Origin: an uncultured Bacilli bacterium
Lineage (GTDB): Bacteria; Bacillota_I; Bacilli_A; RF39; UBA660
DNA: 64,000 bases
Assembly: GCA_934119965.1 (NCBI GenBank)
Contig: CAKOTA010000005.1
Location: 12,939-76,938 of the forward strand
Direction: 5' to 3'
Below the pieces are notes generated by a model, which was not told where the DNA came from, made no database searches, and saw nothing but the letters and a program-made list of their open reading frames with translations. Of the stretch, positions 6,981 through 28,796 are shown one piece after another. Within the stretch, counting starts at the first letter, position 1. Each line of letters begins with the position of its first letter. The position numbers and the translations under genes are program-made.

Positions 6981-7229
6981 TTATTTTCTTTTAATCTTTT
7001 CAATTTTATTTTTTAAATATGTATTTAATACTGGTCTAAATATTATCAATAACAATGTTCCTAGTATAATAAATGTCAACATTTCAATAATATAATTATC
7101 TATTAATATTGATAATATTAAAGATACCGCAGCACTTATTGCATACCATATTGTAGCAATATTACTAGTCATAAATTCACCAATTAACAATAAAATAATT
7201 GTTATTATCCATATATACATATACATCAC
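6981..7229 (-). CDS. Small two-TM membrane protein
   Basis: An 82-aa hydrophobic ORF lies directly upstream of the HerA-like gene on the same strand. Confidence 0.4.
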   Translation of the reverse strand: MMYMYIWIITIILLLIGEFMTSNIATIWYAISAAVSLILSILIDNYIIEMLTFIILGTLLLIIFRPVLNTYLKNKIEKIKRK

Positions 7230-12085: not shown

Positions 12086-12113
12086 ATCACTTAATTTAAA
12101 GTGATTTTTTACA
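12086..12113. terminator. Bidirectional intrinsic terminator between convergent genes
   Basis: The hairpin AAAATCACTT-AATTT-AAGTGATTTTTT is flanked by an A-run on one side and a T-run on the other. Confidence 0.5.
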
Positions 12114-12855
12114 TTATTCCATATTCTCTAACAAATTTTATTTTATGTTTTTGTTTATTTTTTGCTTCAGTGGCTTGATTTAATGTTTCGATGTTTTTAC
12201 CAATATATTCGTTTAAATATTTTTTAAAGTAATATAAAAATTCTTTTATATTAGTATCTTTTTCAATATACATTTCATTTAATGTTTTATTTTTTTCAAC
12301 AAATTCATTAAAGTATGAATCTACTAAAAATAATTTTATTCCTATATTAAAGTTATATCTATTTTGTTTAAGAAGTTCATTATAGTTTAAGTCTGAATAA
12401 CAATATTCAGCTGTATCAATTATTTCTATTTTTCTGTTTCCATACATTGTATTATATAGTACATCATATGTTAAGATTCCATAGTCACTTATTATTTTAA
12501 TATCTTCTTCTACTTTTTCTACTGCTTGTATAAAATTATCTAGTTTTATTTTTAAAGGATTTATTTTATCTATCGTTTGTCCTTTTACAAGTGGACAAAT
12601 ATATCCTATTACTTTGTTATCTAATAACACTGCTTCTTCTATAAATATGTATGTTTTATTTTTACAATTTTTAAATTGCAATAATTCTTTTTCTTCTATT
12701 TCATAGTAATATTCATCATATTCAAAAACATCGTGAAATATTTTAACTACTTTTGACATTTTTGGATCATAATACGCTGTTCCTTGGGAACCGTCACCTA
12801 TTATCTTAAGTTTATTTATATAATTTATAAATTCTTGTTTATTTTTTACTTCCAT
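12109..12855 (-). CDS. Protein-kinase-like fold protein (atypical kinase)
   Basis: A glycine-loop-like IGDGSQGTAY, a VVKIF (VAIK-like) lysine and a YDVLYNTMYG...IIDTAEY catalytic/DFG-like region indicate a kinase-like fold. The gene overlaps the upstream gene by 10 nt. Confidence 0.5.
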   Translation of the reverse strand: MEVKNKQEFINYINKLKIIGDGSQGTAYYDPKMSKVVKIFHDVFEYDEYYYEIEEKELLQFKNCKNKTYIFIEEAVLLDNKVIGYICPLVKGQTIDKINPLKIKLDNFIQAVEKVEEDIKIISDYGILTYDVLYNTMYGNRKIEIIDTAEYCYSDLNYNELLKQNRYNFNIGIKLFLVDSYFNEFVEKNKTLNEMYIEKDTNIKEFLYYFKKYLNEYIGKNIETLNQATEAKNKQKHKIKFVREYGIM

Positions 12856-13826
12856 AATATTTTATTCCTTATTGATTGATTTTCTTTTATCTTTTGCAAC
12901 ACAAATTCATTGGCTTCATTTAATTCATTTAAATTATATTTTGTTTTTTTAGATAGTTTTTTTAGAGATATATTTTTAATGTAGTATTGTTCTAATACAT
13001 AGTTAACTATATCACTATTATCTTGAAATAATTTTTTTAATTCTGCTAATACCATTATTCTCCAATAATATTTTCTGTCTGGCGATAATTTATAATATTC
13101 TTCTGTTAATAAGTCATTTAATAATAACTCATATTGTAGTGGAGCTAAGACTGCTACAATTTTTTCTTTCGGAACTCTATTATAATAAATTACTTCTTTA
13201 TCTGATATTGAATAATTGAAACCACTATAATATACACTAGTTGGCGTTTTATCGGAATTAATCATAAATTCTTTATTTTCATTTATTTTTTCTCTGGAAC
13301 TTAGATCAAATGCAATTAAAACATTATCGTTGATTTGATCAAAAATTTTATTTATTTTACTTTCAACAACAACTACATTATTCTTTTCTTGTTCTTTATA
13401 ATAATGTTTTGTTTTTTCTAAATCTGTAGAAAAAGAAATCCAAGAATAATCCTTACCACTTCCGTTAGTAATATGGGCATTTTTGGTTGAAAGAATATCA
13501 TTAAATTGTCTTAATGCTTTTATATCATTAGTGGATATTAATTTTTTTAATATATTATCTATTTGTTCTTGATTTATATTTGCTTTATCTATTATTTCGG
13601 GAATATGAAGATTAATCACAAAGTTATTTCTTATTTCACGATATATTGAATTTAATTCTTGATTAGTCATTTGTGAAAGCGGATTATTTTTTTTGTGAAA
13701 ATTTGAATATAATAACAATTCATAGTCAGAGTATATTATTTCATCAATTATGGATTTTGCTATTAAACCATTTTTAGTTGGATCTATTTTTTCATCTAAT
13801 TCATTAATTGCTCTATAAATATACAT
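12846..13826 (-). CDS. Hypothetical protein (partner of the kinase-like gene)
   Basis: The 326-aa ORF is driven by a consensus promoter TTGCAT-17-TATAAT and RBS AAGGGGGAAG at 13827-13870. Confidence 0.45.
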   Translation of the reverse strand: MYIYRAINELDEKIDPTKNGLIAKSIIDEIIYSDYELLLYSNFHKKNNPLSQMTNQELNSIYREIRNNFVINLHIPEIIDKANINQEQIDNILKKLISTNDIKALRQFNDILSTKNAHITNGSGKDYSWISFSTDLEKTKHYYKEQEKNNVVVVESKINKIFDQINDNVLIAFDLSSREKINENKEFMINSDKTPTSVYYSGFNYSISDKEVIYYNRVPKEKIVAVLAPLQYELLLNDLLTEEYYKLSPDRKYYWRIMVLAELKKLFQDNSDIVNYVLEQYYIKNISLKKLSKKTKYNLNELNEANEFVLQKIKENQSIRNKILWK

Positions 13827-14153
13827 ATAATCTTCCCCCTTTATTGGCTTGATATTATATACCTTATTTTTCAGAAATGCAAGTTGAAATAAAAATTTTA
13901 ATCTTCTGTTTTAAAGGTGTCTTCTTTTCTTCATTATTCGATAAAAAATAATTTGCTGAAAAACGATGGGCCTTACTTTATCAAAATATCCTATATGTGA
14001 AAATAAAACATTTTTGTAAAATTTTTTCTTATTTGTTCCCATTTCTTTAGAATGCAACTCATCACTCCTGCAATTTTTCAAAGTCGTCTTTTATTATTAA
14101 AATAACTTTTTTATCAATTCAAATATTACTTTTATAATTCAAAGTATATTTTT

Positions 14154-15665
14154 CTATTCTGTAGTTATTTTATATTCACCACTTTGAATTATTTCATTAT
14201 TATTTGCAAATTCATCAAAGGAAATGTCATAACAATTATTTTTATTATTATCACACAATTGGTATATAGTTTCGTATTTATTAATCCAATTACCATATCC
14301 TTCACTATCATTATATTCACAATACCATTGGTTTCTATCTATTTTTTTAGTACAATTATGCTCCCCACAAATAAAATATTTATTTTCATATAAAGTTGTA
14401 TCTACAGGAGTTTCTCCCTCATCTAAAATTATATGAGTTGGAATAGCATTTGGTTTTAATAAATTAATATCAATTAATTTGAATCCATATATATCACATC
14501 TTATCTTAGTATTATATTCAATATCAGCTGTAGTTTGGGGAATTACTACTGTAGAATACTTAACATCATTAATATATATATATCCAATAGGATTAGTAAT
14601 AACAACTAATTCATTATCAACACCAACTTTTATATTAAACTTTTTCAAAACTCTTGCAATTTTACTCAATTTAGGTGTTATTTCAGTATTCCATACTCTA
14701 GCAATAGTCATTTTATCAGTCATACTTTTTGATTCTTCATCAGTATAGGAATGGATAGTAAAGTCTTTCTTTATATTACACTCCAATTCTTCGTTATTCA
14801 TATTACATTCATAAACAATACCATAATCTTCATCTTTTTTTAATTCTTCCCAAAGATTAACATAATAATTATCATTACTATTTTTTATTTGTTCATTATT
14901 TTTAATATTAGATAACAGATTACTTTTAGTACTACTATCTATATACTCAATAGAAATATAATCTTTTTTCTTAATTTCAACCTTATCGGTAGTTTTTATT
15001 TTAACACCATTAGATGTATCATATCCCTTTTCTTTAGATAGTTTATATAGATTATTAACACTTTCATCAATAGTTTTACCTTTAACATCTATTTCATTAT
15101 AAATCTCAATACAATCATCATTTAAACAGGCAACATCATTAACTTTGCCATTTTTAATAGTTAATACAAATGATGGATTAATTTCTATAAATACATAACT
15201 GATTTTTTCTTTTTCAATGTTGCTAATATTATCTTTAAATTTATTTATTTTTATATTAGTTATAAAATTATTAATAAAATATTTAACAAATAATAGTAGA
15301 ACAATAACTAATAATATTTTTCTAAATATATGTTTTTTCTTCTTAAATTCTATAACTACAAATCCATATTTATTTATATCATCATTATTGTAATTTTCTA
15401 TTAAACTATTATAATCAAAATTTTCTTTTTTCTTAAATCCTAACTCTTTTTTTTCTACATTTTTAGATAATTCATCTAAATTAGAGTAAAATCTAATGGC
15501 ATTTACTTTTTTATTAAATCTATCTACCTTTGCTTGAAGAGTTATTTTACTATTATTCTTCATTTTTTTAAAATCTTCATTATTATTTAAACGAATTAGG
15601 ATGGTTTGCTTACCTGATTTAATTTTTCTAAATTCTGTTTTTGAAACATTTATTTTACAGTTCAT
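14154..15665 (-). CDS. ASCH-domain N-terminus fused to a single-pass membrane protein with large Cys-containing ectodomain
   Basis: The N-terminal ~100 aa (ISVSKTEFRKIKSGKQTILIRL...) has an ASCH-like pattern, followed by a TM helix (ILLVIVLLLFVKYFI) and a ~370-aa extracytoplasmic region. Confidence 0.45.
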   Translation of the reverse strand: MNCKINVSKTEFRKIKSGKQTILIRLNNNEDFKKMKNNSKITLQAKVDRFNKKVNAIRFYSNLDELSKNVEKKELGFKKKENFDYNSLIENYNNDDINKYGFVVIEFKKKKHIFRKILLVIVLLLFVKYFINNFITNIKINKFKDNISNIEKEKISYVFIEINPSFVLTIKNGKVNDVACLNDDCIEIYNEIDVKGKTIDESVNNLYKLSKEKGYDTSNGVKIKTTDKVEIKKKDYISIEYIDSSTKSNLLSNIKNNEQIKNSNDNYYVNLWEELKKDEDYGIVYECNMNNEELECNIKKDFTIHSYTDEESKSMTDKMTIARVWNTEITPKLSKIARVLKKFNIKVGVDNELVVITNPIGYIYINDVKYSTVVIPQTTADIEYNTKIRCDIYGFKLIDINLLKPNAIPTHIILDEGETPVDTTLYENKYFICGEHNCTKKIDRNQWYCEYNDSEGYGNWINKYETIYQLCDNNKNNCYDISFDEFANNNEIIQSGEYKITTE

Positions 15666-15763
15666 TATATCAACCTCTCATATTTTAATGGCTTATTATA
15701 TTTAATGCATTCTTTATACCATTCTTTTTCAGACATTTTAACACCTTCACTAAAAATATTTTA

Positions 15764-16549
15764 TCATATTTTTCTTTTTTTGAATATATTTAATCTTTCA
15801 CAAAAGCGTTCTATTTGTGGCAAAAAAGAATTTACAATAATTACTATTCCTAATATCAACACACGTGTTGTATACTTAAATTCTATAACTATTGATTGAT
15901 TTTGTGAATATTGTGAAATTATTTTCTCAACACCAACAAACGATATCAATATAAATACGTTTAATAAAGTCTGCATTATTTTATAAATTAATTCAAAATT
16001 TTTATTATTTTCATTTATATTTTTCTTATATCCATTATGTATAGTCGTTAGTACAAAGAATAAATATGACCCAATTAATCCTATAGTTAAATCATTATTT
16101 TTTCTAATAAAAACTAGTAATGTAAAAAATAGCAAATTCAAAATAAAATTATCTCGAATAAATTTTATTAATTCATCTAAAAAAGTTTTTATACAAATTT
16201 TAAATTTCAAACATCTAGTACTAAAGTAGTTGATAAATATTATTAATGCAAAAAATATACTAAAATATAATATATTTAAAAATACTATTTTTATATCATT
16301 TTCATTGGATGTTACTTCCCATAAAACAATATCTACCAAGTAAACTATAATAAAAATCTTAACTATTTCAATTAGAACTCTAGAAATATATTTTAAATCA
16401 TTCTTTAGTTTATCATCTTTACCTTTATCAATTATAAGATTAATCAAAATTGATAATGTTATTGGAAAACCGAACAATAGAATAAAATAAATAATGTATA
16501 ACATCAAACACACTCCTTTACATAAACATAAGTAACTGCAACGGTACAA
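15764..16549 (-). CDS. Polytopic membrane protein, hypothetical
   Basis: The ORF has about 8 predicted TM segments. The likely true start is MLYIIYF at ~16504 with RBS AAGGAG. It is co-directional and immediately downstream of the small Cys/His peptide gene. Confidence 0.45.
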   Translation of the reverse strand: MYRCSYLCLCKGVCLMLYIIYFILLFGFPITLSILINLIIDKGKDDKLKNDLKYISRVLIEIVKIFIIVYLVDIVLWEVTSNENDIKIVFLNILYFSIFFALIIFINYFSTRCLKFKICIKTFLDELIKFIRDNFILNLLFFTLLVFIRKNNDLTIGLIGSYLFFVLTTIHNGYKKNINENNKNFELIYKIMQTLLNVFILISFVGVEKIISQYSQNQSIVIEFKYTTRVLILGIVIIVNSFLPQIERFCERLNIFKKRKI

Positions 16550-16617
16550 GTACAGGTTGGACTTAATGTTCCATCTTTACAGATTTATCTTCCCGAACTA
16601 CTGCAACCACTAACTCC

Positions 16618-16710
16618 TCAATGGTGAGAACAACACCCTCTTGCTGCTTCGATTTTCAAAGGTGAAAACAACATAACACATATTAAAACTAAGAATATCT
16701 TTTTCTTCAT
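16618..16710 (-). CDS. 30-aa secreted Cys/His peptide precursor (signal peptide + RGCCSHH)
   Basis: This ORF is not in the track because it is under 60 aa. The product is MKKKIFLVLICVMLFSPLKIEAARGCCSHH with RBS GAGGTAGGTG 5 nt upstream and a TTGACA-17-TATGAT promoter upstream. The conserved leader hairpin precedes it. Confidence 0.35.
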   Translation of the reverse strand: MKKKIFLVLICVMLFSPLKIEAARGCCSHH

Positions 16711-16729
16711 ATTAACACCTACCTCTAAC

Positions 16730-16778
16730 AAAAAAACGCCAATACAAAATCTATTAATCATAGACCTGTACTAGCGTC
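16730..16778 (-). promoter_or_regulatory. Conserved 5' leader hairpin + U-tract (attenuator/terminator-like), copy A
   Basis: On the minus strand the sequence reads GACGCUAGUACAGG-UCUAU-GAUUA-AUAGA-UUUUGUAUUGGCGU-U7 and sits directly 5' of the RBS. It shares CGCCAATACAAAA and CCTGTACTAGCG blocks with the copy at 20066-20114. Confidence 0.45.
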
Positions 16779-17384
16779 ATCGTTCATTAATTGTCTATAT
16801 TATATATCAAAATACAAAATTAAACAAATATTTTATTCAAAATTTCTATTTAACATCATAAATTACAATTATTTTCTTGACAAAACTATTAGTTTTTTAA
16901 CTTTTTTCAGCAGTTTTGTCAAATGTTTTATTTCATCACATATTTTTTTAGTTATCTAATAATGCTAGACAACTAAAACCATAGTTATAAAATATACTCT
17001 AAGTTGGTGACGAATCGTCAACGACTCAATTTTTGCAGGTAAAAAAATGAAACTCACTGAACATTTTTTCAAAAAAGATTTATCATAATATTAAATAAGT
17101 ATATTATTTTTCAATCAGCTATAAATTGTTCTCGATTAATTTCTTAATTTTATGTGCACAAAATTGTAACAAAAAATATTTAATAGACTTCAAATCCTTT
17201 AATACAAACAAAAACGAGAGCTTTTGCTCTCTTCAGGGGGAAATATTATTATCAGTTCGTAACAATTTAATAATTTGTTAAAGTCTTATAAAATAAGGCT
17301 TTTTATTTTATCAAAATTTACTAAATTTTATAAAAATAACTTTATTTTTGCGGTTTAGTATCTAGTTTTGGTATCTGGAATTAT

Positions 17385-17696
17385 TTATACATTAGTTTCA
17401 ACATTTTCTTCTTCAAAATCATTAATTCCTGTGACAATCTTTTCAATAACCTCAATTATATTACTGTATACAGCATTTGAAAGTTTATCATCGTCACCAA
17501 ATGAAGCATCTTTATCTATCTTAATATTATCTCCTTTTTCAAAATTTGAAAACAACGCATCATATAATTTTTTTCCATCAACACTTAATGTGCTTTTAGA
17601 AATTTCAAATATTTCTTCTGTCCCATTGTTAATTGTATATTTATCACTTTTATTATACATCGTATATGTTTTTGTCATATCTTTTCCACCTTTCAT
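17385..17696 (-). CDS. Small acidic protein, partner of PHP-ATPase (overlaps its 3' end by 44 nt)
   Basis: The 103-aa ORF is overlapped by the 797-aa gene on the same strand. A hairpin GAGAGC-AAAA-GCTCTC plus T-run terminator follows at ~17215-17240. Confidence 0.4.
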   Translation of the reverse strand: MKGGKDMTKTYTMYNKSDKYTINNGTEEIFEISKSTLSVDGKKLYDALFSNFEKGDNIKIDKDASFGDDDKLSNAVYSNIIEVIEKIVTGINDFEEENVETNV

Positions 17697-20046
17697 TAAT
17701 AGAATCTATTCCACCTTCTATGTTATCAGCAACAATTTTTAAAATATCATAATCCTTATCACAATATTCCAGTGCTCCATTTTGAATATATATTTTATCA
17801 TTTTCATCTTTTCCTATAAAAATAACATTATCAACATCTAAATTAACAATAAATTGGGGATTATGTGTAATTATAATGACCTGTCTATTTTTACTCATAT
17901 CATAAAAATCTCCAAGTATATTTTTCTTTATAGATGGTTGTGATACATCATCTTCAGGTTGATCAATTATATATATTCTATTATCATCAGTTTGATTAGA
18001 TATTAAATCAAAATAAATTTTAGAATTAAAACCTGATGATAATTCCTTTGTTACATCTTTATCACTAGCATCATTTATTGCTTTATCAATTAAAAAATAA
18101 TTATCTATTTCTTTATCTAATTCATTTTTTAGATTTATTAATTTATCATTATAAGAAATGTCTTTATTCCTATTACTAAATCTATCTGGGATAGTACTTG
18201 AATCAATTGAATTTATATCTTTTACACTTTTTCCTAAAACATTATTAATTAAAGTTAGTAAATTGGCGTTTGATACCTCTTTAGTTTTAGTCTTTGCAAC
18301 AAATCTGTATTTTCCAACCTTATTAGATGTTGTCGGTACTTTTTCCTCTTTTATATTAGGTTCATATTTAACTTTATTCCTGTTCTTATAATAGTAATTT
18401 ACAATATTTTCTGAAAAAGAATCCTTATTACTTTCATAATTTGCTATTTTTTCTGTTTCATCTGTTTTAGTCTTCTTTAGTACTTTATCTTTACTTGTGA
18501 ATTCATCATTAATAATATTTATTTTAGAAATTTCAAATAAATTTTGTTTAATTTTATTATTATATTTTGAAATTAATTTAATATTAGAATTTATACTATC
18601 ATTAATATATTTTTCATCTTCTTTATCAAAAAAATCATTTTCCTGTATTTTATCCAATAAAGAATTAATTGATTCAAAATATTCAACTATTTTACCTATT
18701 TTTTTTATTTTTGAATTAATACTAGTAATAGTTGCTTGAGTTACATTTTTAAAATTTAAAGATTTTGAAGTAGCCTCAATAACACATATATCAAAATTTG
18801 TTATTTTATTAAATGCATTACTTTTTTCTTCTTTATTTTTTAATATTGAAATATAATTTTCAATTTCAGATTTATAAATTTCAATATACTTGCTTACTAG
18901 TGGTTCTGCAGGGAAAAATCCATTTAAGAATTCATCACTGTCAAAAGTTTTATTTTCAAACATTTTTCTAATAGAACCTTGCCCATTGAATTTAGAAATA
19001 TTTGATTCAGGTATGGATGAGTTAATTTTAATTTTATTGTTTATTAAATATTCATCATAACTATCTTTAATTTTTTGGTCATTAAGGTAATTATAATTAG
19101 TTAACTTGTGAATAAGTAAAGATTTACCTATCGAATTATCTCCAATTATAACATTAATACCTTTAGAAAGCTTTATATCATATTTATTGTTGTCTATTTC
19201 AATATTAATACTATCTAAATATTTATCAGTAGTAGAATAAAAATTATTAACATAATTAATTCTTTTTGTATTTGTTACTGCCATTGCCAAACCTCTAAAT
19301 GTTGGTAAACATTTTAAATAAGTAAATGAAAAGTCATCATTTTCTTCTGGATATTTAGACCAATCATGACAATCAGAACCTGTTACGAATCTTAAAGTAA
19401 CATCTTTATACTTTTCTTTATTCTTTTCAATATAATTTTTATTAAATATTTCATTTCTTTTTCTCTTGAATTCAAACGATTCAAAATAATCCATGAAAAC
19501 TAATTCATCAAATTTTTCTTTTCCTAAACTCATTACATCGTGACTTCTTGTCTCTTTACTTGATAAGGTCTCTTTTTGATGTGCTATCATTACAACATTT
19601 AAATCTATATTTTTTAAAATATTAAGATATTTATTTTCAGAAAATGAATTTAATTCAATATCGTCATAAAATGGTTTATTGTTTTTTATATCAAATATTT
19701 CATTTTGTATTTTTTTTATTTTTTCTTCATCTTTATCATCAAAAATTGTAATTACATGTAAAACTTTTTTATCATATGTTACTGAAAATTCAACTGCAGG
19801 AAACACTTTTTTAATACTACCTTTGTTTTCTTCTTGCTTTAACTTATTATATATATTGAAATCAAAGTTATCGTGGTCTGAAATAGAACACATATTTATT
19901 TCTCTTTGATTTAGTTTTTCTATTAATAAATCTATATTATCTAAAGTAGATAAATCTACACAATCATCACTTTCTTTGTGTTTAGATGCAATAGAATGAA
20001 TATGAAAATCAACTTTATTCCCTGTTTCAATAATTTTTTCTATCAT
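17653..20046 (-). CDS. PHP-domain phosphoesterase fused to ABC/SMC-like (AAA_21/OLD-type) ATPase
   Basis: N-terminal PHP motifs are present (VDFHIHS, SISDHDNFD, AVEFSV, LHVITIF). The central Walker A is GDNSIGKSLL. The C-terminal Walker B/D-loop is IYIIDQPEDD and the H-loop is IIITHNPQF. Confidence 0.65.
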   Translation of the reverse strand: MIEKIIETGNKVDFHIHSIASKHKESDDCVDLSTLDNIDLLIEKLNQREINMCSISDHDNFDFNIYNKLKQEENKGSIKKVFPAVEFSVTYDKKVLHVITIFDDKDEEKIKKIQNEIFDIKNNKPFYDDIELNSFSENKYLNILKNIDLNVVMIAHQKETLSSKETRSHDVMSLGKEKFDELVFMDYFESFEFKRKRNEIFNKNYIEKNKEKYKDVTLRFVTGSDCHDWSKYPEENDDFSFTYLKCLPTFRGLAMAVTNTKRINYVNNFYSTTDKYLDSINIEIDNNKYDIKLSKGINVIIGDNSIGKSLLIHKLTNYNYLNDQKIKDSYDEYLINNKIKINSSIPESNISKFNGQGSIRKMFENKTFDSDEFLNGFFPAEPLVSKYIEIYKSEIENYISILKNKEEKSNAFNKITNFDICVIEATSKSLNFKNVTQATITSINSKIKKIGKIVEYFESINSLLDKIQENDFFDKEDEKYINDSINSNIKLISKYNNKIKQNLFEISKINIINDEFTSKDKVLKKTKTDETEKIANYESNKDSFSENIVNYYYKNRNKVKYEPNIKEEKVPTTSNKVGKYRFVAKTKTKEVSNANLLTLINNVLGKSVKDINSIDSSTIPDRFSNRNKDISYNDKLINLKNELDKEIDNYFLIDKAINDASDKDVTKELSSGFNSKIYFDLISNQTDDNRIYIIDQPEDDVSQPSIKKNILGDFYDMSKNRQVIIITHNPQFIVNLDVDNVIFIGKDENDKIYIQNGALEYCDKDYDILKIVADNIEGGIDSINERWKRYDKNIYDV

Positions 20047-20065
20047 TAATTACCACCTCACTACT

Positions 20066-20114
20066 AAAAAGCGCCAATACAAAAACTTATAAAATATAAG
20101 CCTGTACTAGCGCT
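20066..20114 (-). promoter_or_regulatory. Conserved 5' leader hairpin + U-tract, copy B (upstream of PHP-ATPase gene)
   Basis: On the minus strand the sequence reads AGCGCUAGUACAGG-CUUAUA-UUU-UAUAAG-UUUUUGUAUUGGCGCU-U5, followed by RBS GAGGTGG and the ATG at 20046. The outer stem is identical to copy A and the apical stem differs with compensatory changes. Confidence 0.45.
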
Positions 20115-20228
20115 TCCTTTTTATATATATTATTATAGCATAAATTCTGTTAATTTTATTATAAAATGACACTATGACGCATTGTTTGCGAGTACCCCAC
20201 TCATATTTTTGGTGTCATTGTGTCACTC

Positions 20229-20930
20229 TTAGCAGTTTTGATATTTAAATATTATTATTTTATGGTTTATTCTATTCTTTTTTATCTTATTTGCTATTTC
20301 TGGACCATATATTACTTCAAAACTTTTCTTAGCTTCATTATAAGAATTAAAATTAAAATATGTATCTATTTGTTTATCAACAGTAAAGCCATTGGATAAA
20401 ATCCAATTATTATAATCTCTAGTTCTACTATCTTTATTTCTATTTCTTATTTCTTCAAACTCACTATTTTCATCATTTTCAATTAATATGATTGTTCCAT
20501 TAGATTTTAATAATCGTTTTAACTCACTTAAACATTTATTTCTTTCAGTTATATCTATAATTGTACCTAATACCCACGAACAAACTATTAAATCTACTTT
20601 ATCACTTTCTAAATTGATTTTAGATAAATTAGAACATATAAATTCTGAAGTATCTTTTTTTGATTTTACTTTTGCTTTTTCTAGTTGTTTATCTGATAAA
20701 TCTATTCCAATATATTTTTTTGAATATTCCTCTAATATATTTAAAAACTTACCAGTTCCACATCCAGCATCTAAAACAATTTTATCTTTACATATATGTT
20801 CTAAATAAGAACCAACTTTATTTTCTCCATCTTCAGCAATACTAAAGATTTCATAATAATCATTATTTTCATAATATGCTTTAGAATCTTTTAAGAGATT
20901 TTTGGTATCCATTTTCTTCACCCTTTTCAT
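20229..20930 (-). CDS. Class I SAM-dependent methyltransferase
   Basis: Motif I reads VLDAGCGTGKF. The 233-aa gene is the last in the overlapping operon. Confidence 0.75.
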   Translation of the reverse strand: MKRVKKMDTKNLLKDSKAYYENNDYYEIFSIAEDGENKVGSYLEHICKDKIVLDAGCGTGKFLNILEEYSKKYIGIDLSDKQLEKAKVKSKKDTSEFICSNLSKINLESDKVDLIVCSWVLGTIIDITERNKCLSELKRLLKSNGTIILIENDENSEFEEIRNRNKDSRTRDYNNWILSNGFTVDKQIDTYFNFNSYNEAKKSFEVIYGPEIANKIKKNRINHKIIIFKYQNC

Positions 20931-21963
20931 ACATTTTAGTTTCAGGAAAAATCATATCAACCATATATTTAGCAATATTTTGTGATTTACCTATTGCAGG
21001 TCTGAAATGCATATGCACTCCAGGTACTGTGTTGATTTCAATTATTCTATAACTATCATCATTTTGTAATTTTTCTATTGAATTGGTCATATAATCAATT
21101 CCTACATATGGAAGTCCAGGAAATGCATCTAAAACTCTCATACCAATATCAATAACACTAGGATGTGCTCTATCAGTATAATCTTCACATATTCCTCCCA
21201 TAGCAACATTAGAATTTGGTCTTAAATATACTTTTTCTCCTAAAGTTGGAATAGTATCCATACTTATACCATTTGCTTTAATATATTTATACATTTCTTC
21301 ATCTACAAGTATTTCACATAAAGCATTTGTTCTTGGATTCATTCTACGATAATTTTCTATTGAAATTAATTCTTTTATAGAATGTTCCCCATCTCCATAT
21401 ACATGAGCAGGATCTCTATGAAGTACTGCATAATCTCCATTCTTTGTAACAAACACTCTATATTCTTTTGCATTAAAATATTCTTCTATTAGCACTTTAG
21501 TTTGTAATCCCCTATTTTGAGTTATCTTATCTATTGCTTTTAACAAATCGTTTTCAGAAGTTATATTTGTATAAACATCATAACCATGAGAACCAAAAAC
21601 AGGTTTTAAAACAACAGGGCAATCAAATACATTAAATGCTTTTAAAATATAGTCAGAGTCAGTTATATTGAATACTTCTCCCATAGGAACACTAATACCA
21701 TTATTTTGTAAAATATGTTTTGTTATTCCTTTATCTCCAGCAAGTATTGAAACATTATATGGCATTATTGATGAATCTCTATCATAGATTAATTCCTCAT
21801 GACCATTATAAGATGCTTTTATTAATTCTAAACTCTCATCTAATACTTCAACACTTATACCTCTTTTTAACATTTCATATATCAATATTTTTTGATTAGA
21901 ATGTAAATTTTTATAAATGTTTTCCATTTTACCATCTACTTTCGCCTGAATCGTGGCTTTCAC
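20881..21963 (-). CDS. ATP-grasp family ligase
   Basis: The 360-aa protein has an ATP-grasp fold pattern (VVLKPVFGSHGYDV..., EYRVFV, IEINTVPG). It overlaps the methyltransferase gene by 50 nt and the ESR-repeat gene by 35 nt. Confidence 0.7.
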   Translation of the reverse strand: MKATIQAKVDGKMENIYKNLHSNQKILIYEMLKRGISVEVLDESLELIKASYNGHEELIYDRDSSIMPYNVSILAGDKGITKHILQNNGISVPMGEVFNITDSDYILKAFNVFDCPVVLKPVFGSHGYDVYTNITSENDLLKAIDKITQNRGLQTKVLIEEYFNAKEYRVFVTKNGDYAVLHRDPAHVYGDGEHSIKELISIENYRRMNPRTNALCEILVDEEMYKYIKANGISMDTIPTLGEKVYLRPNSNVAMGGICEDYTDRAHPSVIDIGMRVLDAFPGLPYVGIDYMTNSIEKLQNDDSYRIIEINTVPGVHMHFRPAIGKSQNIAKYMVDMIFPETKMYEKGEENGYQKSLKRF

Positions 21964-22456
21964 TTGAACTACTATACGAAGTATAACTAGAACGAGTAGA
22001 ATCTTTTTTAGGTTTTGCAGGTTTTCTAACTAGTTTTTTTACACTACCTATAAGATCATCTAATTCATCATTAGATTGTTCTAACATTCTTAATTGTTTT
22101 TCTTCTTCTGATTCTCTTTTTGCTTCATCTCTTAATCTTTTTAATTCTTCAATTTTTTGTCTTCTTTGTTCTAAAGCTTGATTAATTCTAGGATTATTAG
22201 ATGTAATAGTAGGCATTTCTCTTTCTAACTTTTCTATTAAAGAATCAATATCATCCAAATTATTATATCTAGAATTATTTACTTGACCTCTAATATCACA
22301 TCTGCTTTCACTATCATTTCTACTTTCATTAGAAAAATTATTACTTGAATAACTACATCTACTTTCTCCAGTATCTCTACTTTCACTTGGTCTAGATACA
22401 TATGATGGAGTATATCTACTTCCTCTACTTTCACTATTATTTCTACTTTCTGACAT
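21929..22456 (-). CDS. ESR-repeat protein (Ser/Arg-rich termini, central coiled coil), candidate modification substrate
   Basis: The 175-aa protein carries seven ESR tripeptides (SESR/GESR/NESR) clustered at both termini and ends in ...SESHDSGESRW. The central segment is a charged helix. It lies 1 nt after the DUF3419 gene and overlaps the ATP-grasp gene. Confidence 0.5.
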   Translation of the reverse strand: MSESRNNSESRGSRYTPSYVSRPSESRDTGESRCSYSSNNFSNESRNDSESRCDIRGQVNNSRYNNLDDIDSLIEKLEREMPTITSNNPRINQALEQRRQKIEELKRLRDEAKRESEEEKQLRMLEQSNDELDDLIGSVKKLVRKPAKPKKDSTRSSYTSYSSSSESHDSGESRW

Positions 22457-22457
22457 T

Positions 22458-23306
22458 TTATTTTCCTCCTCTTTTTAAAATTAAAACACCATCTTTTTTA
22501 TCCTGCGAACTTCCTTCTAAAGCACTCTTAAATTCTACTTGTTGGAAGTTAAAAAATATCTCTTTTACTTTTCTTAAATCATCTATTTCTGTTCTAGGAT
22601 TAGAATTTCCTATATCGTATAAATAAGCAAAATATATTATATCTATTTTTTTTTGAAATTCAATTAATAAATCTCTATATTTTTTTAATATATCACAACT
22701 ATACATTAAACTTAAATAATCAGATATATTCGATAAAAACATATAATCGAAATGTTCATCTACTTTTAAATCTTTTAAACTTGTATTTATATAAGTAATA
22801 TTTGCATCCTTTATTTGTTGTTTTAATAAATTATACTTACTTTTTTCTAAATATAAATTTTGCCACAATTTGCTATTAGGATTAAAATATTTTGTATTAA
22901 ATAAAGAAGAGTTTCTTAATTCAATACCATTATTATCAAATTTAGATAATTGCTCTAACCAAAACATTTTACTTTCATCAGACATATCTAAACTTGAGAT
23001 AATACTATAATCTAAATTCATATTACTTTCAAACAAAAGTAAATTTATAAAATCTTCATAAGATAAATTTTTTAGAGCACTAATTTTTAGATCCATATAT
23101 GGTTTTGTTAATGGATTAATATCAAACGTTGTTATCTCAGCTGCTCCCTGTAATATTACATTTAATATATGGTCCGTTGAACCTGTTACTGTAATAACTT
23201 TTTTACCAGTTAAATTCAAATATTTCATATATCCAGCAATATTTTCAGAAGTAAAAGGATATATACTATTAAATCTTCCCATAACATTTTCCTTTACTTT
23301 TTGCAT
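22458..23306 (-). CDS. DUF3419 family protein (BtaA-like SAM-dependent 3-amino-3-carboxypropyl transferase fold)
   Basis: The 282-aa protein has the pattern VITVTGSTDHILNVILQGAAEITTFDINPLTKPYMDLKISALKNLSYEDF, which resembles the DUF3419 ITSAGxNxLDYL...AVDLNPxQ..LLELK signature. Confidence 0.5.
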   Translation of the reverse strand: MQKVKENVMGRFNSIYPFTSENIAGYMKYLNLTGKKVITVTGSTDHILNVILQGAAEITTFDINPLTKPYMDLKISALKNLSYEDFINLLLFESNMNLDYSIISSLDMSDESKMFWLEQLSKFDNNGIELRNSSLFNTKYFNPNSKLWQNLYLEKSKYNLLKQQIKDANITYINTSLKDLKVDEHFDYMFLSNISDYLSLMYSCDILKKYRDLLIEFQKKIDIIYFAYLYDIGNSNPRTEIDDLRKVKEIFFNFQQVEFKSALEGSSQDKKDGVLILKRGGK

Positions 23307-24738
23307 CTAAAAATCTTACTAAAACTTTATCTCTTTTAATTTCTTCTAAAGAATTATCTCTTAATGATTTAGTTGTGATACAAGTCTTATCACTTTCTAA
23401 TACCCAAGGGCATGGACTTACATTACCAAAATTATTTATATATATAAATTTATCTCCTGCAGGACATCTATGAACAAAATTAGGTTGTTTACCAAAATTG
23501 TAATTAACTATTATTTGTCCATTATATTTTTCTCTTAATTCATCAATTTGAGAAATTAATACTTCGTTTGGTACTGTCTTAACTAATGTTCTATCTTGTC
23601 CAGAAACTGGTTCCATTATTGAAAAGATTATTTCATCAGCTTGTAAACCTACTGAATCCAAAATCAAACTTTCTAAATCGTATTGATTATTTGAATGTAT
23701 AACAGAACCTATTCTTACTTTATTAACTGATTTTCTTAATGCTTCTAAACCTCTTATAGTTCTTTCATAAGTATTATTTCCTCTTACTGATTCATGTTCC
23801 AATTTATCTCCATCTAAACTAACATGTATCATTTTTAACTTTAATTGATTTAATAACTCTACTTTTTCAGGAGTTATTAAAGATGCATTAGTAGATATAT
23901 CAGTAATCAATCTTTCACTTGCATATTTTAAGATTTCTAAAATATCTTTTCTAATAAGTGGTTCTCCACCAGTTATCTTTAAATGTTTGAAATTATGTAA
24001 AACTAATTCATCTATAATATGATAACATTCTTCAGTAGTTAATTCCCCATCAATTTTTTTATTATTACAAGAAAATATACAATAAGAACAATTATAATTA
24101 CATTGATGTGTAATTTCCCAAATTGCCTTACCTTCATTATTTGGTAAAGTAAATTTACATTCCATACTATTTAAAAATTCATTAATTTTGTTTATATCAT
24201 AACCATTATCAGTATTAATTATTAAAAAGTTGTCTGAAAGATATTCTTCTAAATTATCTATTCTTTGTAGTTCAAATCTTTTTAATATATCCTCTTTGGA
24301 TAAATCACTTTCAATTAATCTCTCTAATCTTGTTTTATCAGAAGCAGTAACATAAATTATTTTATCAAACTTATCTCTTAGGTCATCATTAAGTATTAAT
24401 GCCCAATCAACAATTATTGTTTTATTATCAAAACAATCTAAATAATTAAATAAATATTTATACAATACCCCTTTATATTTTTCCATATATTCTTCATTAC
24501 TATAAATATATTTATTTAAAATTAAAGAATTTATTTCATCATATTCTTTTAATTCAGGAATTACATTTTTTAACTCTAAAATATATGAAGCATTTTTATA
24601 TAAACTTCTTCTAAAAATATCTACATCTACATAAATGTAATCAGGACTATATTTTAAAATATCCTCTGATATAGTTGTTTTTCCTGATGACATTCCACCT
24701 GTTATTCCTATTAATCTATTCATACCAACACATCCCAT
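23269..24738 (-). CDS. P-loop nucleoside/nucleotide kinase-like domain fused to radical SAM enzyme with SPASM/twitch-like C-terminus
   Basis: The N-terminal P-loop is GITGGMSSGKTT. The radical SAM cluster motif is CNYNCSYC and the GGEPL motif follows. Additional C-terminal Cys residues (HRCPAGD...SPCPW...CI) are present. Confidence 0.7.
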   Translation of the reverse strand: MGCVGMNRLIGITGGMSSGKTTISEDILKYSPDYIYVDVDIFRRSLYKNASYILELKNVIPELKEYDEINSLILNKYIYSNEEYMEKYKGVLYKYLFNYLDCFDNKTIIVDWALILNDDLRDKFDKIIYVTASDKTRLERLIESDLSKEDILKRFELQRIDNLEEYLSDNFLIINTDNGYDINKINEFLNSMECKFTLPNNEGKAIWEITHQCNYNCSYCIFSCNNKKIDGELTTEECYHIIDELVLHNFKHLKITGGEPLIRKDILEILKYASERLITDISTNASLITPEKVELLNQLKLKMIHVSLDGDKLEHESVRGNNTYERTIRGLEALRKSVNKVRIGSVIHSNNQYDLESLILDSVGLQADEIIFSIMEPVSGQDRTLVKTVPNEVLISQIDELREKYNGQIIVNYNFGKQPNFVHRCPAGDKFIYINNFGNVSPCPWVLESDKTCITTKSLRDNSLEEIKRDKVLVRFLDAKSKGKCYGKI

Positions 24739-26059
24739 ACTTTATTGGAGTAAATGCTGCTATTTTAGTATTCTTATCAGCATTCTCATATATATTCCAA
24801 TCTATATCATTTGAAACCATATTATAATTTTCTTTTTCTAATTCTTTTATAAGTTTATTTATTTCATTAGTTAAATCATTATTTTCTATATTAGGTTTAT
24901 TACTATGAATATATTGTGTTTTATTTACTACTTCTTTATTCTCGTTATATATTGGTGTACCAACACGATATGCTAAATAATGAAGTCTTAATTCGTGAGG
25001 CATTATTGATAAAATTAATTCTTTTGTTTTTATAATATCTTCTTTAGTTGATGATGGATAATCCAAAATAAAACTTGTTCTTATTCTATAACCAATTTTC
25101 TTTGTTTCTTCTATTACTTGTTTTATATAATTAATATCCATATCTTTATTCATTAATTTTAATAATCTTTCACTACCTGTTTCAATACCATAATGAACCC
25201 ATCTAAATCCAACTTTATACATATATTCTAAAAGTTCTTTATCATAACATTTAATACTACATAATGCCCCAAATAAACATTTGATATTTCTTTTTTCAAT
25301 TTCTTTACAAATTTCTATCATTCGTTCTTTATTGACAGTTGCATTATCATCTAAAAAGATTATTTTCTTTGTATTATATTTTTCTATTAACATTTCTATT
25401 TCATTTACAACATCTGTAACATTTCTTCCATTCCACTTACCAAAATAATATGGTGTAGTACAAAATTTACAAGTTCCAACACAACCTCTTGAAGTAATAA
25501 TAGTTCTTGTATCCATATATTTAGTAATATCTAATAAATCTCTATTAGGAATTGGTAACTTATTAAAATCATTTGTTAATATTTTCTTTTCAGTAAAGTA
25601 TATATCTTCTTTATTTTTTATAACTAAATTAGGAATACTTTTTAATTTATCTATATTATTAATATTTTCTATTACATCAGTAATAATTTCGTCTGCTATT
25701 CCTCTAATAACAACATCTATACCATTATCTAAAAATTTTTGATAAAAGTGAGTAGATGTTTTTCCTATCATTATGAATTTAGTAGGTTTATTTGTATTAT
25801 GAATTGTTTCAAATATATTTTGTATTGTTTCAGTAGTATGTAATGGTAATTGATAATCATAGACAAAAACAACTATATTTTCATCAGATAAATATTCATT
25901 AATATTATTATTCATTCTATTAACATCCATATCAATTACTTTTACTCTATCAAATTTTTTATTTATAATTGTTGCTATTTGTAATACATCTAATGGTTCA
26001 GCTAAAATAGACCTATTTGTAAATGGTTTATTTGCTGGATTAACTACTAAAACATTCAT
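24716..26059 (-). CDS. B12-binding domain radical SAM enzyme (class B rSAM)
   Basis: An N-terminal cobalamin-binding Rossmann-like region is followed by the radical SAM motif CVGTCKFC. The 447-aa gene is first in the operon and has an extended -10 TGCTATAAT upstream at ~26085-26110. Confidence 0.75.
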   Translation of the reverse strand: MNVLVVNPANKPFTNRSILAEPLDVLQIATIINKKFDRVKVIDMDVNRMNNNINEYLSDENIVVFVYDYQLPLHTTETIQNIFETIHNTNKPTKFIMIGKTSTHFYQKFLDNGIDVVIRGIADEIITDVIENINNIDKLKSIPNLVIKNKEDIYFTEKKILTNDFNKLPIPNRDLLDITKYMDTRTIITSRGCVGTCKFCTTPYYFGKWNGRNVTDVVNEIEMLIEKYNTKKIIFLDDNATVNKERMIEICKEIEKRNIKCLFGALCSIKCYDKELLEYMYKVGFRWVHYGIETGSERLLKLMNKDMDINYIKQVIEETKKIGYRIRTSFILDYPSSTKEDIIKTKELILSIMPHELRLHYLAYRVGTPIYNENKEVVNKTQYIHSNKPNIENNDLTNEINKLIKELEKENYNMVSNDIDWNIYENADKNTKIAAFTPIKYGMCWYE

Positions 26060-26498: not shown

Positions 26499-26677
26499 TT
26501 CTTCATTTTTTACTATTAATTATACTTTAATTCTATCATTTTTCAAAAAAATTGTCCACTTTACAATATTAAAATATAAGTTTATCAAAAAAATACCATA
26601 TTATTGGTATCTAAATATAATATTTAATATCTAGTGTGGTATCTAGATAAATCAAAAATAGTTAAAAATTCCTTATA

Positions 26678-26776
26678 AATAAAAGTATTCCCCTCTTTCG
26701 AGGGGAATTTCAGGGGGTTTTGGTTGCGCACTCTCATCTGTTGAATCGTAAGAGTGCTACGTGATATTATCACGCT
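26678..26776 (-). ncRNA. Candidate ~100-nt small RNA with consensus sigma-A promoter and intrinsic terminator
   Basis: On the minus strand, TTGACT-17-TATAAT sits at 26783-26811. Two internal hairpins follow (CGTGATA/TATCACG and GCACTCT/AGAGTGC), then the terminator UUCCCCUC-GAAA-GAGGGGAA plus a U-run. The unit lies directly downstream of the recG stop. Confidence 0.4.
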
Positions 26777-26822
26777 AGTATAATTATAGAGTATAATCTC
26801 TAAAAAGTCAAGTTGATATTCG

Positions 26823-28796
26823 TTAGTTCAAATCAATAGAATCTTCTAATAACCTAATTAAATTACTGTCTTTATTTTTTTCTAAATATTCCATCGCATC
26901 CTCTTTAGCTTTAAGCAAAATATTATAATCTTTTTTTATATCTGCTATCTTAAATACCATATCTCCACTTTGTCTTAATCCAAACAAATCTCCAGATCCT
27001 CTAAGTAAAAAATCTTCTTCGCTAACTTTAAAACCATCATTAGTTTTAGTTAAAACATTTAATCTTTCAGTTTCTCTATTACTAATTAGAATACAATATG
27101 ATTGTAAATTATTACGGCCCACTCTACCTCTTAATTGATGTAAGGCTGATAATCCAAATCTAAAAGCATCAAAAATAACAATCATTGTAGCATTTTTAAC
27201 ATCTATTCCTACTTCAATAACTGTAGTACTTATTAATATATTAATTTTATTATCTTTAAAATCATTCATTATTTTTTCTTTTTCGGCATTATCCATCTTA
27301 CCATGTAAAACACCTATTTTATATAATTTACCAAACGCTTTATTCATTTTTGTTTCTAATTCATAAACATTTTCTAAATCCGATTTATCACTTTCTTCAA
27401 TTAATGGAGCAATAACATACACTTGATGATTATTTGATAATTCATTATACATATCATTTAATACATCTTTTATTTCTTTTTCCTTTTTTAATTTTGTTAT
27501 TATTTCTTTTTTACCACTTGGTAATGTCCTAATGCTAGATACATCCATATCACCATATAATGTAATAGCATAAGTCCTTGGAATTGGGGTTGCACTCATA
27601 TACAAAATATCAGGAGTAATTCCTTTATTTTTCAAATTACTTCTTTGATTAACACCAAAACGATGTTGCTCATCAGTTATAACTAAACCTAAATTTTTAT
27701 ATTTAACATTATCACTAATTAAAGCATGAGTGCCAATTATAAAATCTATTTCACCATTTTCTAATTTAGAATACAATTCTTTTTTTTCTTTTGCTTTTAA
27801 TTTACCCGTCAATAAACCTACATTTATATTATAATTTCTAAATAACTCTTTTATATTTTCATAATGTTGAATAGCTAAAATTTCAGTGGGTGCCATTAAA
27901 GCAGATTGATAGCCGCTTAAATAATTAATATACATACTTATAATTGCTACTATTGTTTTACCGCTTCCAACATCACCCTGTAATAATCTATTCATTCGAT
28001 ATTTACTATTTAAATCTTTATATATATCCTCTACAGCTTTTAATTGATCAGTAGTTAAATCAAAACTTAAATTATCAATAAATTCAGAAACATCTTTATA
28101 ATCAACATTTCTAGTAAGTCCTATTTTATTTTTATTATTTTTTAAATAATTCATTTTTAACATAAACAAAAATAGTTCTTCATATTTAAATCTTGTTCTT
28201 GCTTTTTTTAATTCTAATAAATTATTAGGATGATGTAATATACTAATAGATTTGTTTTTATCTTCAAATTTATATTTTTCTTTTAAATAGTCAGGTATAT
28301 AATCAATAATACTATAATTTGTTTCTAAAGCTTGATCAATATATAATGATATATTTTTGCCACTTATACCATATGTAGAATGATATATTGGTTCTATTTT
28401 TTCTTTTAAGATTCTTCCAAATCTTATTTCTGATGTGACGATTGTGTTATGTTTTTTATCATACTTACCTATCACGGTAATACTTGTTCCAATTTTTAGG
28501 TTGGATTTTAAAAATCCTCTATTAAATATAATTATGTTAAATAAATTTGAACCACTATTTAATTTAAAACTCATTTTATCCATTTTTCGATTAAAGTGAA
28601 AAACATTAGGTACAGTTTCTACTACGCCATCCATTATTATTTTATCATTATCATTTAATTCTTCTATATTACTTCTTTTAATTACTTCATATCGAAATGG
28701 ATAAAAATTAACTAGGTCTTCAACTTTATTAATACCAAGTTTATTTAATAAATTTATTTTCTTAGGTCCAATTCCTTTGAGTGTACTAAGTTCCAA
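26823..28796 (-). CDS. recG: ATP-dependent DNA helicase RecG
   Basis: The protein has a LKGIGPK wedge/N-terminus, Walker A LQGDVGSGKT, DEQHRFGV, and RGRVGR. The likely start is the TTG at 28796 with RBS AAGGTGGTG. The track ORF extends to 28874 with an implausible hydrophobic N-terminus. Confidence 0.85.
   Translation of the reverse strand: MELSTLKGIGPKKINLLNKLGINKVEDLVNFYPFRYEVIKRSNIEELNDNDKIIMDGVVETVPNVFHFNRKMDKMSFKLNSGSNLFNIIIFNRGFLKSNLKIGTSITVIGKYDKKHNTIVTSEIRFGRILKEKIEPIYHSTYGISGKNISLYIDQALETNYSIIDYIPDYLKEKYKFEDKNKSISILHHPNNLLELKKARTRFKYEELFLFMLKMNYLKNNKNKIGLTRNVDYKDVSEFIDNLSFDLTTDQLKAVEDIYKDLNSKYRMNRLLQGDVGSGKTIVAIISMYINYLSGYQSALMAPTEILAIQHYENIKELFRNYNINVGLLTGKLKAKEKKELYSKLENGEIDFIIGTHALISDNVKYKNLGLVITDEQHRFGVNQRSNLKNKGITPDILYMSATPIPRTYAITLYGDMDVSSIRTLPSGKKEIITKLKKEKEIKDVLNDMYNELSNNHQVYVIAPLIEESDKSDLENVYELETKMNKAFGKLYKIGVLHGKMDNAEKEKIMNDFKDNKINILISTTVIEVGIDVKNATMIVIFDAFRFGLSALHQLRGRVGRNNLQSYCILISNRETERLNVLTKTNDGFKVSEEDFLLRGSGDLFGLRQSGDMVFKIADIKKDYNILLKAKEDAMEYLEKNKDSNLIRLLEDSIDLN

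Follow-up and report, generated by a model that had tools for sequence, protein, structure and literature searches.

A candidate two-gene defence cassette, a predicted PHP nuclease fused to an SMC-like ATPase with a small acidic partner, in an exchangeable slot of an uncultured Bacilli genome

Ppl is reportedly one of the anti-phage systems described by Gao et al. in 2020, and defence proteins that join a PHP domain and an ATPase are so far represented by this one validated single-gene example and by TrlF and Spaf_1101, which are known from annotation only. Ppl has been described as a nucleotide-gated single-stranded DNA (ssDNA) 3'-5' exonuclease that needs 3'-OH ends and is inhibited by nucleoside triphosphates bound to both of its domains (review, PMC12904381), and a phage Ro60-like protein counters it (PMC11482910). 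In Photorhabdus, trlF is part of the TRL (temperature restriction locus) operon together with trlR and trlG (AlbA_2 plus HATPase_c_4) (PMC7554251). Here we describe a relative of these proteins in a 64,000-nucleotide (nt) stretch of DNA from an uncultured Bacilli bacterium (contig CAKOTA010000005.1, positions 12,939 to 76,938; hereafter the window), which is very AT-rich, with a G+C content of about 24%. On its minus strand, a gene for a 797-amino-acid (aa) PHP and ATPase protein overlaps the gene for a small acidic partner, and the pair sits in a slot that close relatives fill with other defence genes. This same-slot polymorphism is the decisive evidence for reading the pair as a defence cassette directed against invaders, a reading to which we assign, from comparative sequence analysis, a probability of about 0.7–0.8; that the two genes act against invading DNA, most likely phages, from within a defence hot spot is put at about 0.7.

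A preliminary description of the locus had listed two minus-strand open reading frames (ORFs), of 797 aa (17653..20046) and 103 aa (17385..17696), overlapping by 44 nt, and had named PHP, Walker A, Walker B, and H-loop motifs in the larger one. Both ORFs are present as listed. The translation of the larger contains FHIHS (H15, H17), SDHD (D57, H58), E86, H97, GDNSIGKS, IIDQPED, and IITHNP (residues 725-730), and all of the named motifs proved invariant in an alignment of 51 full-length homologues with 23-76% identity. In the same alignment, invariant positions comprise the PHP metal ligands D13, H15, H17, D57, H58, E86, H97, D225, and H227, residues G302, N304, G307, and K308 of Walker A, the Q-loop residue Q356, G672 of the signature motif upstream of Walker B, and D695, Q696, P697, T727, and H728. 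The features of the two genes are as follows.

17653..20046, minus strand: gene for the 797-aa PHP::ABC-ATPase protein, the presumed effector (ORF; family clusters; AlphaFold 2 (AF2) model; sub-cut-off NCBIfam matches)
19261..20046, minus strand: PHP phosphoesterase/nuclease domain, residues 1-262 (invariant ligands; Foldseek)
19120..19143, minus strand: Walker A GDNSIGKS, residues 302-309
18382..18894, minus strand: coiled-coil insertion between the halves of the ATPase head, residues 385-555 (AF2 helices; Foldseek)
17857..17973, minus strand: Walker B IIDQPED (693-699) through H-loop THNP (727-730)
17385..17678, minus strand: gene for the 97-aa acidic partner (longest ORF 17385..17696, 103 aa; overlapping ORF in family loci; AF2 model)
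17686-17691, minus strand: ribosome-binding site AGGTGG of the partner gene, 7 nt upstream of the ATG at 17678

In the AF2 model of the 797-aa protein (predicted local distance difference test score, pLDDT, 89.7), an N-terminal alpha/beta domain (1-262) is followed by the N-lobe of an ABC ATPase, four long helices (385-555), and the ATPase C-lobe. The helices, at 385-416, 437-468, 475-524, and 529-555, are placed between Walker A and the signature/Walker B region (672-699) and form a coiled coil of roughly 170 residues, or about 80 residues per arm. Foldseek searches against the PDB matched the N-terminal domain to the PHP phosphoesterases 3o0f and 3e0f and to the PHP domain of RNase AM (7ug9), with a probability of 1.00, and matched the remainder to the heads with coiled coils of RecN (4ad8), SMC (5xei, 5xns), Rad50 (3auy), PARIS AriA (8v46), and Wadjet JetC. 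No solved structure in the PDB aligned over the full length of the protein by Foldseek, and a sequence search of PDB chains returned nothing similar. As modelled, the ABC head is assembled from N- and C-lobes linked by an antiparallel coiled coil, which is the SMC-like arrangement. We therefore classify the protein, on its sequence and predicted fold, as a putative PHP nuclease or phosphoesterase fused to an SMC-like ABC ATPase.

The ATPase had also been assigned to the class found in OLD, Gabija, and PARIS. The ABC class is indeed common to them, with Walker A, Q-loop, signature, Walker B, and H-loop recognizable in AriA, GajA, and OLD, and PADLOC models of GajA, AriA, and PtuA match the C-lobe of the 797-aa family. 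Further likeness was not borne out: the Foldseek alignment to OLD and GajA covers only 123-131 ATPase columns, and the heads that resemble this one are of RecN, SMC, Rad50, and AriA type. Because a Toprim domain was not found in the 797-aa protein, it is not OLD- or Gabija-like beyond its ATPase class. Whereas Toprim is fused in OLD and GajA and supplied by the partner AriB in PARIS, the present system has an N-terminal PHP domain and a 97-aa partner without a catalytic signature.

A search of 1.84 billion cluster representatives returned about 231 clusters (50% identity level) with E<1e-30, almost all of them 760-820 aa long and aligned from end to end, so that the relatives of the 797-aa protein form a discrete family. 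Its best sequence match is TrlF, whose NCBIfam model (NF045780) scored the window protein at 126.8 bits (E 1.2e-36, residues 10-670) against a curated cut-off of 350 bits, and the Spaf_1101 model (NF045781) scored it at 61.8 bits against 475. Like the 797-aa protein, TrlF has a PHP-like N-terminus (annotated as histidinol phosphatase), a Walker A motif, a long helical insert, and a C-terminal lobe, and it too is patchy in distribution, with some copies on plasmids; TrlF proteins are 850-890 aa long, compared with 797 aa, and at two plasmid TrlF loci trlF stands alone, with no overlapping small ORF. The preliminary description had called the protein Ppl-like. This holds for the layout, one polypeptide that combines an N-terminal PHP domain with an ATPase whose C-terminal lobe and tail are homologous to those of Ppl, but not for membership: the Ppl model (NF042955, cut-off 1000 bits) gave 40.4 bits (E 9e-11) over residues 692-789 only, so that about 100 residues align, and the Ppl models are 882-894 positions long. 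Ppl is also a single gene, whereas the 797-aa family always comes with a small partner.

Across the 51 sampled members, the TrlF and Spaf_1101 models match every one and the Ppl model matches 50, with best E-values of 2.6e-64, 6.9e-28, and 2.4e-25, respectively. The C-terminal lobe is the region that the 797-aa protein, Ppl, and TrlF have in common, and hhalign aligned it to TrlF with a probability of 99.7%. PADLOC, which had been suggested as a check, gave weak partial matches to PDC-M49A, Ppl, GajA, and PtuA and a full-length match to no model. Its Ppl model scored 30 bits over about residues 692-789, the GajA models aligned to residues 659-761 only, and membership in PDC-M49A failed at 32.8 bits, with a best stretch of residues 10-137 against a 681-position profile; in the family as a whole, the matching PADLOC models include Ppl, PDC-M49A, GajA, and AriA. 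By sequence comparison, then, the 797-aa protein belongs to a distant sister family of TrlF, Spaf_1101, and Ppl and qualifies for none of the three.

The SMC-like head invites comparison with a second group of systems. As in SbcCD/Mre11-Rad50, RecN, and Lamassu, the head is split by an antiparallel coiled coil and goes with a metal-dependent nuclease, and Lamassu, which is laid out as LmuA, LmuB, and LmuC, likewise has a small third subunit. Unlike in these systems, the nuclease is of PHP type and is fused in cis, the coiled coil is short, and the distribution is accessory rather than core. The cassette could accordingly serve in anti-plasmid immunity or competition between elements, as Wadjet or Lamassu do, with the ATPase sensing small circular or replicating DNA, the nuclease cutting it, and phages being a secondary target. 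The fold, which resembles SMC, JetC, Rad50, and RecN heads with their coiled coil, would suit such a role, as would the combination of an effector with a small subunit, which parallels the Lamassu layout, and the carriage of the cassette on mobilisable elements. We nevertheless regard this as improbable, since the window protein has no match to the PADLOC models of Wadjet or Lamassu components, its coiled-coil arms are far shorter than those of loop-extruding SMCs, and its closest sequence relatives are Ppl and TrlF.

We surveyed one genome per species in 185,579 species by pattern matching followed by confirmation and obtained at least 243 confirmed relatives among the 598 pattern matches listed, from which the family appears to be rare and patchy. 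For locus comparisons we applied tblastn and ORF analysis to 84 loci, 80 of them from the one-genome-per-species set and four from related contigs of the Clostridium sp. CAG:417 type; the 3' flank is present in 83. These loci come from uncultured Bacilli, Clostridia, Lachnospiraceae, Oscillospiraceae, Erysipelotrichaceae, Acholeplasmatales, Negativicutes, and Coriobacteriia (Collinsella, Adlercreutzia, Olsenella). In 124 flanking proteins drawn from 32 diverse loci, the most frequent Pfam families are ResIII, DEAD, SWI2_SNF2, HSDR_N, Eco57I, N6_Mtase, SLFN-g3 helicase, Abi_2, and Recombinase, and PADLOC recognized type I and IIG restriction-modification (R-M) systems, AbiD, AbiLi, AriA, mad2, and several PDC candidates. 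Further neighbours across the family loci include ThsB_TIR, ToxN, JetA, Fst toxins, and relaxases. At a Coriobacteriia-type locus, the cassette directly follows hsdM-hsdS-hsdR and lies near IS21, three tyrosine recombinases, Abi_2, and a relaxase; at a Bacilli-type locus, the genes after it are Abi_2, a type II R-M pair, and a serine recombinase. No TrlG-like gene was found in the window, and AlbA_2 is not among the 25 commonest Pfam families of the 124 flanking proteins. Seven family loci with 29-40% identity lie on predicted viral contigs in IMG/VR (L101-L107), either as true prophage or as host flank, and tblastn against catalogued plasmids and phages returned distant C-lobe matches only and no family member. 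One tblastn match (H8), considered as a candidate member, was rejected as an unrelated 289-aa protein.

In the window, the cassette has as its neighbours a gene for an S-adenosylmethionine (SAM) methyltransferase and a decayed surface-protein gene. A protein search with the flanking methyltransferase retrieved relatives in which the adjoining radical-SAM/ATP-grasp/methyltransferase cluster is 87-96% identical to the window. The stretch had been described as accessory-looking, and the comparison bears this out, as close relatives that retain the flanking genes, with the cluster 87-94% identical, have other defence genes in the slot downstream of the methyltransferase: a 1203-aa Tmn (PADLOC 1.5e-62; Pfam YobI-ATPase 4e-98) followed by a Fic protein (PDC-S04), a 708-aa PDC-S06 (PADLOC 1.6e-188), a 1055-aa fusion of a ResIII/DEAD helicase with HsdS-type specificity domains adjoining an IS110 transposase, or a MazG-like protein together with a GIY-YIG/Schlafen-type helicase. 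The cassette itself occupies the slot in two of the related contigs (L108, L117). Where the contigs carry Tmn or PDC-S06, homology to the window picks up again at 17380-17201, the terminator region behind the partner gene. An exact-match search of metagenomes for an empty-site junction found none. The locus is in effect a clean natural defence slot, found in uncultured gut bacteria with small genomes whose defence biology is almost unexplored, and its cargo is swapped between conserved regulatory flanks that are short. Three features of the cassette and the slot are as follows.

17197..20225, minus strand: 3,032-bp block common to the window and a different species of the Clostridium sp. CAG:417 type (blastn of L001-L004)
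17201..17380, minus strand: conserved 3' slot flank, 86-89% identical to L110 and L112-L116/L118, where it follows Tmn or PDC-S06
17206..17231, minus strand: intrinsic terminator after the partner gene, GAGAGC-AAAA-GCTCTC then GTTTTTGTTT, just inside the end of the CAG:417 block

The block common to the window and the CAG:417 contigs is 96.8% identical, compared with 69.5% for the nearby recG, and the genes around it differ. In CAG:417, an integrative mobilisable element carries the cassette together with integrase fragments, a Mob_Pre relaxase, and an AAA_25 protein. The cassette has a third context as well, in which the common DNA comprises exactly a hairpin and the two genes (20120-17383, about 92% identity), flanked on one side by ThsB_TIR, an AAA_11/12 helicase-DUF2726 protein, or ToxN and on the other by a methyltransferase cluster.

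As a separate observation on the related contigs (L108-L118), the exchange flanks are a 5' hairpin/terminator region (20056-20233) and the 3' terminator region of ~180 nt (17201-17380). Most of these contigs have no adjacent recombinase, which suggests that exchange proceeds by homologous recombination on very short flanks.

These observations bear directly on whether the protein might be a housekeeping DNA-repair enzyme, an analogue of SbcCD/Mre11-Rad50 in which PHP replaces the calcineurin-like nuclease. The combination of an ABC/SMC-like ATPase with a metal nuclease follows the logic of SbcCD, some members of the family have weak matches to the RecN and Rad50 models of NCBIfam, and PGAP gives one TrlF protein the Gene Ontology (GO) term for double-strand-break repair. 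The neighbourhood comparison, which the preliminary description had proposed, shows that the cassette is not a core housekeeping locus of its relatives: its place is taken by other defence genes in close relatives, and it is about 97% identical between divergent species whose recG genes differ far more. With the patchy distribution and the position of the cassette among R-M and Abi genes as further evidence, the repair explanation is largely refuted, by presence/absence and cargo swapping, and we hold it to be highly improbable. We favour the defence reading because of location, that is, the slot, the transfer, and the neighbours.

We next turn to the partner. An alignment of more than 60 loci places its conserved start at Met7 of the listed ORF (ATG at 17678), and gene callers picked the identical start on related contigs. 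The partner is therefore 97 aa long and overlaps the enzyme gene by 26 nt; of the earlier claim, the acidic overlapping ORF stands, whereas the length of 103 aa and the overlap of 44 nt do not. A same-strand ORF is present at the 3' end of the enzyme gene in all 83 loci with a 3' flank, with overlaps of 17-65 nt and, at one locus, a 13-nt gap. Partner lengths in these loci are mostly 87-132 aa and isoelectric points (pI) mostly 4.2-5.2; the near-identical copies in L001-L005 have a pI of 4.4-4.5. The AF2 model, built on an alignment of database proteins, reached a pLDDT of 90.4 and predicts a beta-beta-beta-alpha-beta-alpha fold with an acidic tail. The partner belongs to no Pfam, NCBIfam, or PADLOC family and gave no convincing fold match, and none of the 112 proteins returned by a profile search carries an informative name or a Pfam domain. 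Measured to the window copy in 75 loci, the partner diverges faster than the enzyme, with a mean identity of 30% compared with 46%, and is the less conserved of the two in 73 of them. We found neither an obligate small partner nor the protease-fused form described below at two plasmid TrlF loci or in the Ppl and TrlF literature consulted, and these two features set the cassette apart from both. The family thereby adds to PHP-ATPase defence an obligate, fast-evolving partner that no current model set recognizes, in gut Firmicutes and Coriobacteriia.

Two loci have a partner ORF of only 68 aa (L022:10342-10548, L037:10345-10551), and the shortening may stem from decay or faulty assembly and might flag cassettes that are inactive.

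In 12 of the 83 loci (L035, L043-L045, L049, L051-L054, L056, L057, and L071), the partner ORF is 213-239 aa long. The N-terminal about 95 residues of these long ORFs match the partner profile (E 1e-14 to 1e-20), and a Peptidase_S24 domain (E 1e-18 to 1e-21) makes up their C-terminal half. The S24-fused partners have an acidic linker and conserved A-C-A-G, G-x-S-M-E-P-T, and M-C-K-R motifs, which correspond to the LexA, CI, and UmuD cleavage site (here Ala-Gly) and Ser/Lys dyad. They thus have the layout of LexA with the partner domain replacing the DNA-binding domain, although, unlike in LexA, the N-terminal domain is not helix-turn-helix. In a neighbour-joining enzyme tree, the 12 loci group as a single clade, which suggests that the fusion arose once and that the two genes then diverged together. 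The clade spans Oscillospiraceae-type Clostridia and Negativicutes (Sporomusa, Phascolarctobacterium), and loci of Sporomusa aerivorans and Neglectibacter caecimuris are among the S24-fused ones.

The small acidic partner, the overlapping frames, and the faster evolution of the partner would also suit a toxin-antitoxin or addiction module, in which a nuclease-ATPase toxin and a labile acidic antitoxin stabilise an island or mobile element. The integrative mobilisable elements with relaxases and integrases that carry the cassette, and the ToxN and Fst toxins that adjoin some loci, fit this as well. The antitoxin-like gene, however, comes after the enzyme gene, an unusual order for type II modules, the alternative occupants of the slot are single-gene defence systems (Tmn, PDC-S06) and not toxin-antitoxin pairs, and the nearest characterised relative, Ppl, is an anti-phage nuclease. 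We consider addiction quite improbable as the main role of the pair, and toxin-antitoxin and defence roles are compatible.

By analogy with E. coli Ppl, SMC-like defence ATPases, and AriA, the 797-aa protein of the defence cassette would be the effector, a PHP nuclease gated by its ABC ATPase. ATP-dependent engagement of the heads, together with the coiled-coil arms, may recognise DNA ends or unusual DNA; recognition, whether of DNA ends or of nucleotide status, would gate the PHP exonuclease, which would then degrade the nucleic acid of the invader and possibly that of the host. The comparisons and models show the architecture, the conserved catalytic residues, the obligate partner, the horizontal transfer, and the exchange of cargo with known defence genes; the substrate, polarity, and oligomeric state of the enzyme, the sign of the partner's effect, and the trigger are inferred. 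The partner, translationally coupled through the 26-nt overlap, could be a regulatory subunit that restrains the enzyme or supplies the trigger, a specific role that we propose tentatively, by analogy. In the S24-fused clade, autoproteolysis might free the partner domain, as happens with LexA and phage CI on RecA-ssDNA filaments, and this would be the arming step. A more far-reaching and rather doubtful proposal is that the partner is a safety catch or sensor that defines a class of two-component PHP-SMC-like immune nucleases, with the S24 clade armed on RecA-ssDNA and the short partners, that of the window among them, answering a different signal, for which a phage protein, proteolysis, and a displaced acidic tail are candidates. 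If true, the S24-fused clade would wire an SOS-type damage signal directly to an immune effector, and the fused variants provide a concrete hypothesis for how PHP-ATPase nucleases are switched off and on.

Several results weigh against this picture. Pfam gave no usable match for the 797-aa protein, its PHP model included, and the PHP assignment therefore rests on the motifs and the predicted fold. In fold, the PHP domain comes closest to the TrlH/YciV/RNase AM group, which makes RNA or a nucleotide, instead of DNA, a possible substrate. The cassette was found in hundreds of CAG:417-type contigs and may be near fixation in that species. In Photorhabdus, no temperature-tolerant mutation mapped to trlF (PMC7554251), which leaves the only studied TrlF without an assigned phenotype. 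Finally, the 97-aa partner of the window has no S24 domain and fails as a LexA-type protein, so that autoproteolysis is an extrapolation from a sister clade. We see the cassette as a candidate of moderate interest, testable, from poorly studied gut lineages and no surprise for specialists.

The preliminary description had noted ~50-bp repeated elements flanking the gene. The repeats are real, and both are terminator-like hairpins:

20060..20120 (repeat 20063-20112; hairpin about 20066-20118), minus strand: hairpin plus U-run, repeat copy A, before the enzyme gene (-25.9 kcal/mol, z -4.2)
16735..16778 (repeat 16728-16776), minus strand: hairpin plus U-run, repeat copy B, outside the cassette, before the decayed surface-protein gene (-27.6 kcal/mol, z -5.1)

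The two are direct copies with a common 12-mer seen twice against 0 expected; each is a long hairpin with several G-U pairs and a U-run on the coding strand, 20-25 nt before a ribosome-binding site. One copy lies inside the transferred block and the other about 420 nt outside it. Copy A travels with the cassette in the Clostridium sp. CAG:417 contigs, and the copy A hairpin also directly precedes Tmn and the helicase-HsdS gene in relatives. We considered the repeats as ends of a transposon or insertion sequence and rejected this, given their direct orientation, the position of one inside and one outside the block, and the presence of the hairpin before unrelated cargo and before the separate surface-protein gene; rather than mobile-element ends or bounds of the transferred DNA, they are terminator-like hairpins at the slot boundary. 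On the simplest reading, copy A acts as an intrinsic terminator and keeps the slot insulated from the operon before it, and the hairpin and the 3' terminator region supply short homology for cargo exchange. A role as a leader attenuator is possible, but in an alignment of the hairpin the changes are mostly one-sided (G-U to G-C) and only one pair is changed on both sides, so that covariation supports the structure weakly. Rfam returned nothing for the hairpins or the intergenic regions.

The decayed gene behind copy B (16521-16814, minus strand) reads MKKKIFLV...RGCCSHH*GVSGCSSSGR*ICKDGTLSPTCTC and contains two in-frame stops, GGA to TGA and CAA to TAA, in what would be a Cys-rich surface protein. 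Intact 180-aa homologues (L098:2542-3084; L007:10810-11352) combine a GCCSHHGGVSGC motif and three YGCTD..A.NYN..A..DDG.C repeats with a signal peptide and a C-terminal membrane anchor. The surface-protein gene adjoins the defence cassette in three genomes, either upstream or downstream of it.

On the other side of the slot, the cluster that separates it from recG (20229-26059, minus strand) is conserved at 63-96% in 24 metagenome contigs. It encodes two radical SAM enzymes (one a fusion with a CoaE-like kinase), a DUF3419 protein, an ATP-grasp ligase, the SAM methyltransferase, and a 175-aa protein rich in SESR-type Ser/Glu/Arg repeats, and could be a cluster for a ribosomally synthesised and post-translationally modified peptide (RiPP) or for peptide modification. 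Just downstream of recG (26585-26830, minus strand), a consensus-like promoter, TTGACT-17-TATAAT, is followed after about 100 nt by a G+C-rich terminator hairpin, and the 96-nt stretch after this hairpin is 86% identical to the CAG:417 genome, even though recG is as divergent as noted above. The region has no tRNA or Rfam match and may be a small RNA or an island attachment site. Elsewhere in the window, a 621-aa HerA/DUF87-type ATPase adjoins a 434-aa protein (5138-7003 and 7286-8590, minus strand), which may be another defence pair, and a 503-aa membrane protein (14154-15665, minus strand), within an otherwise unannotatable run of genes at 12109-16549, has an RsgI-like central domain of the anti-sigma factor type (E 1e-9).

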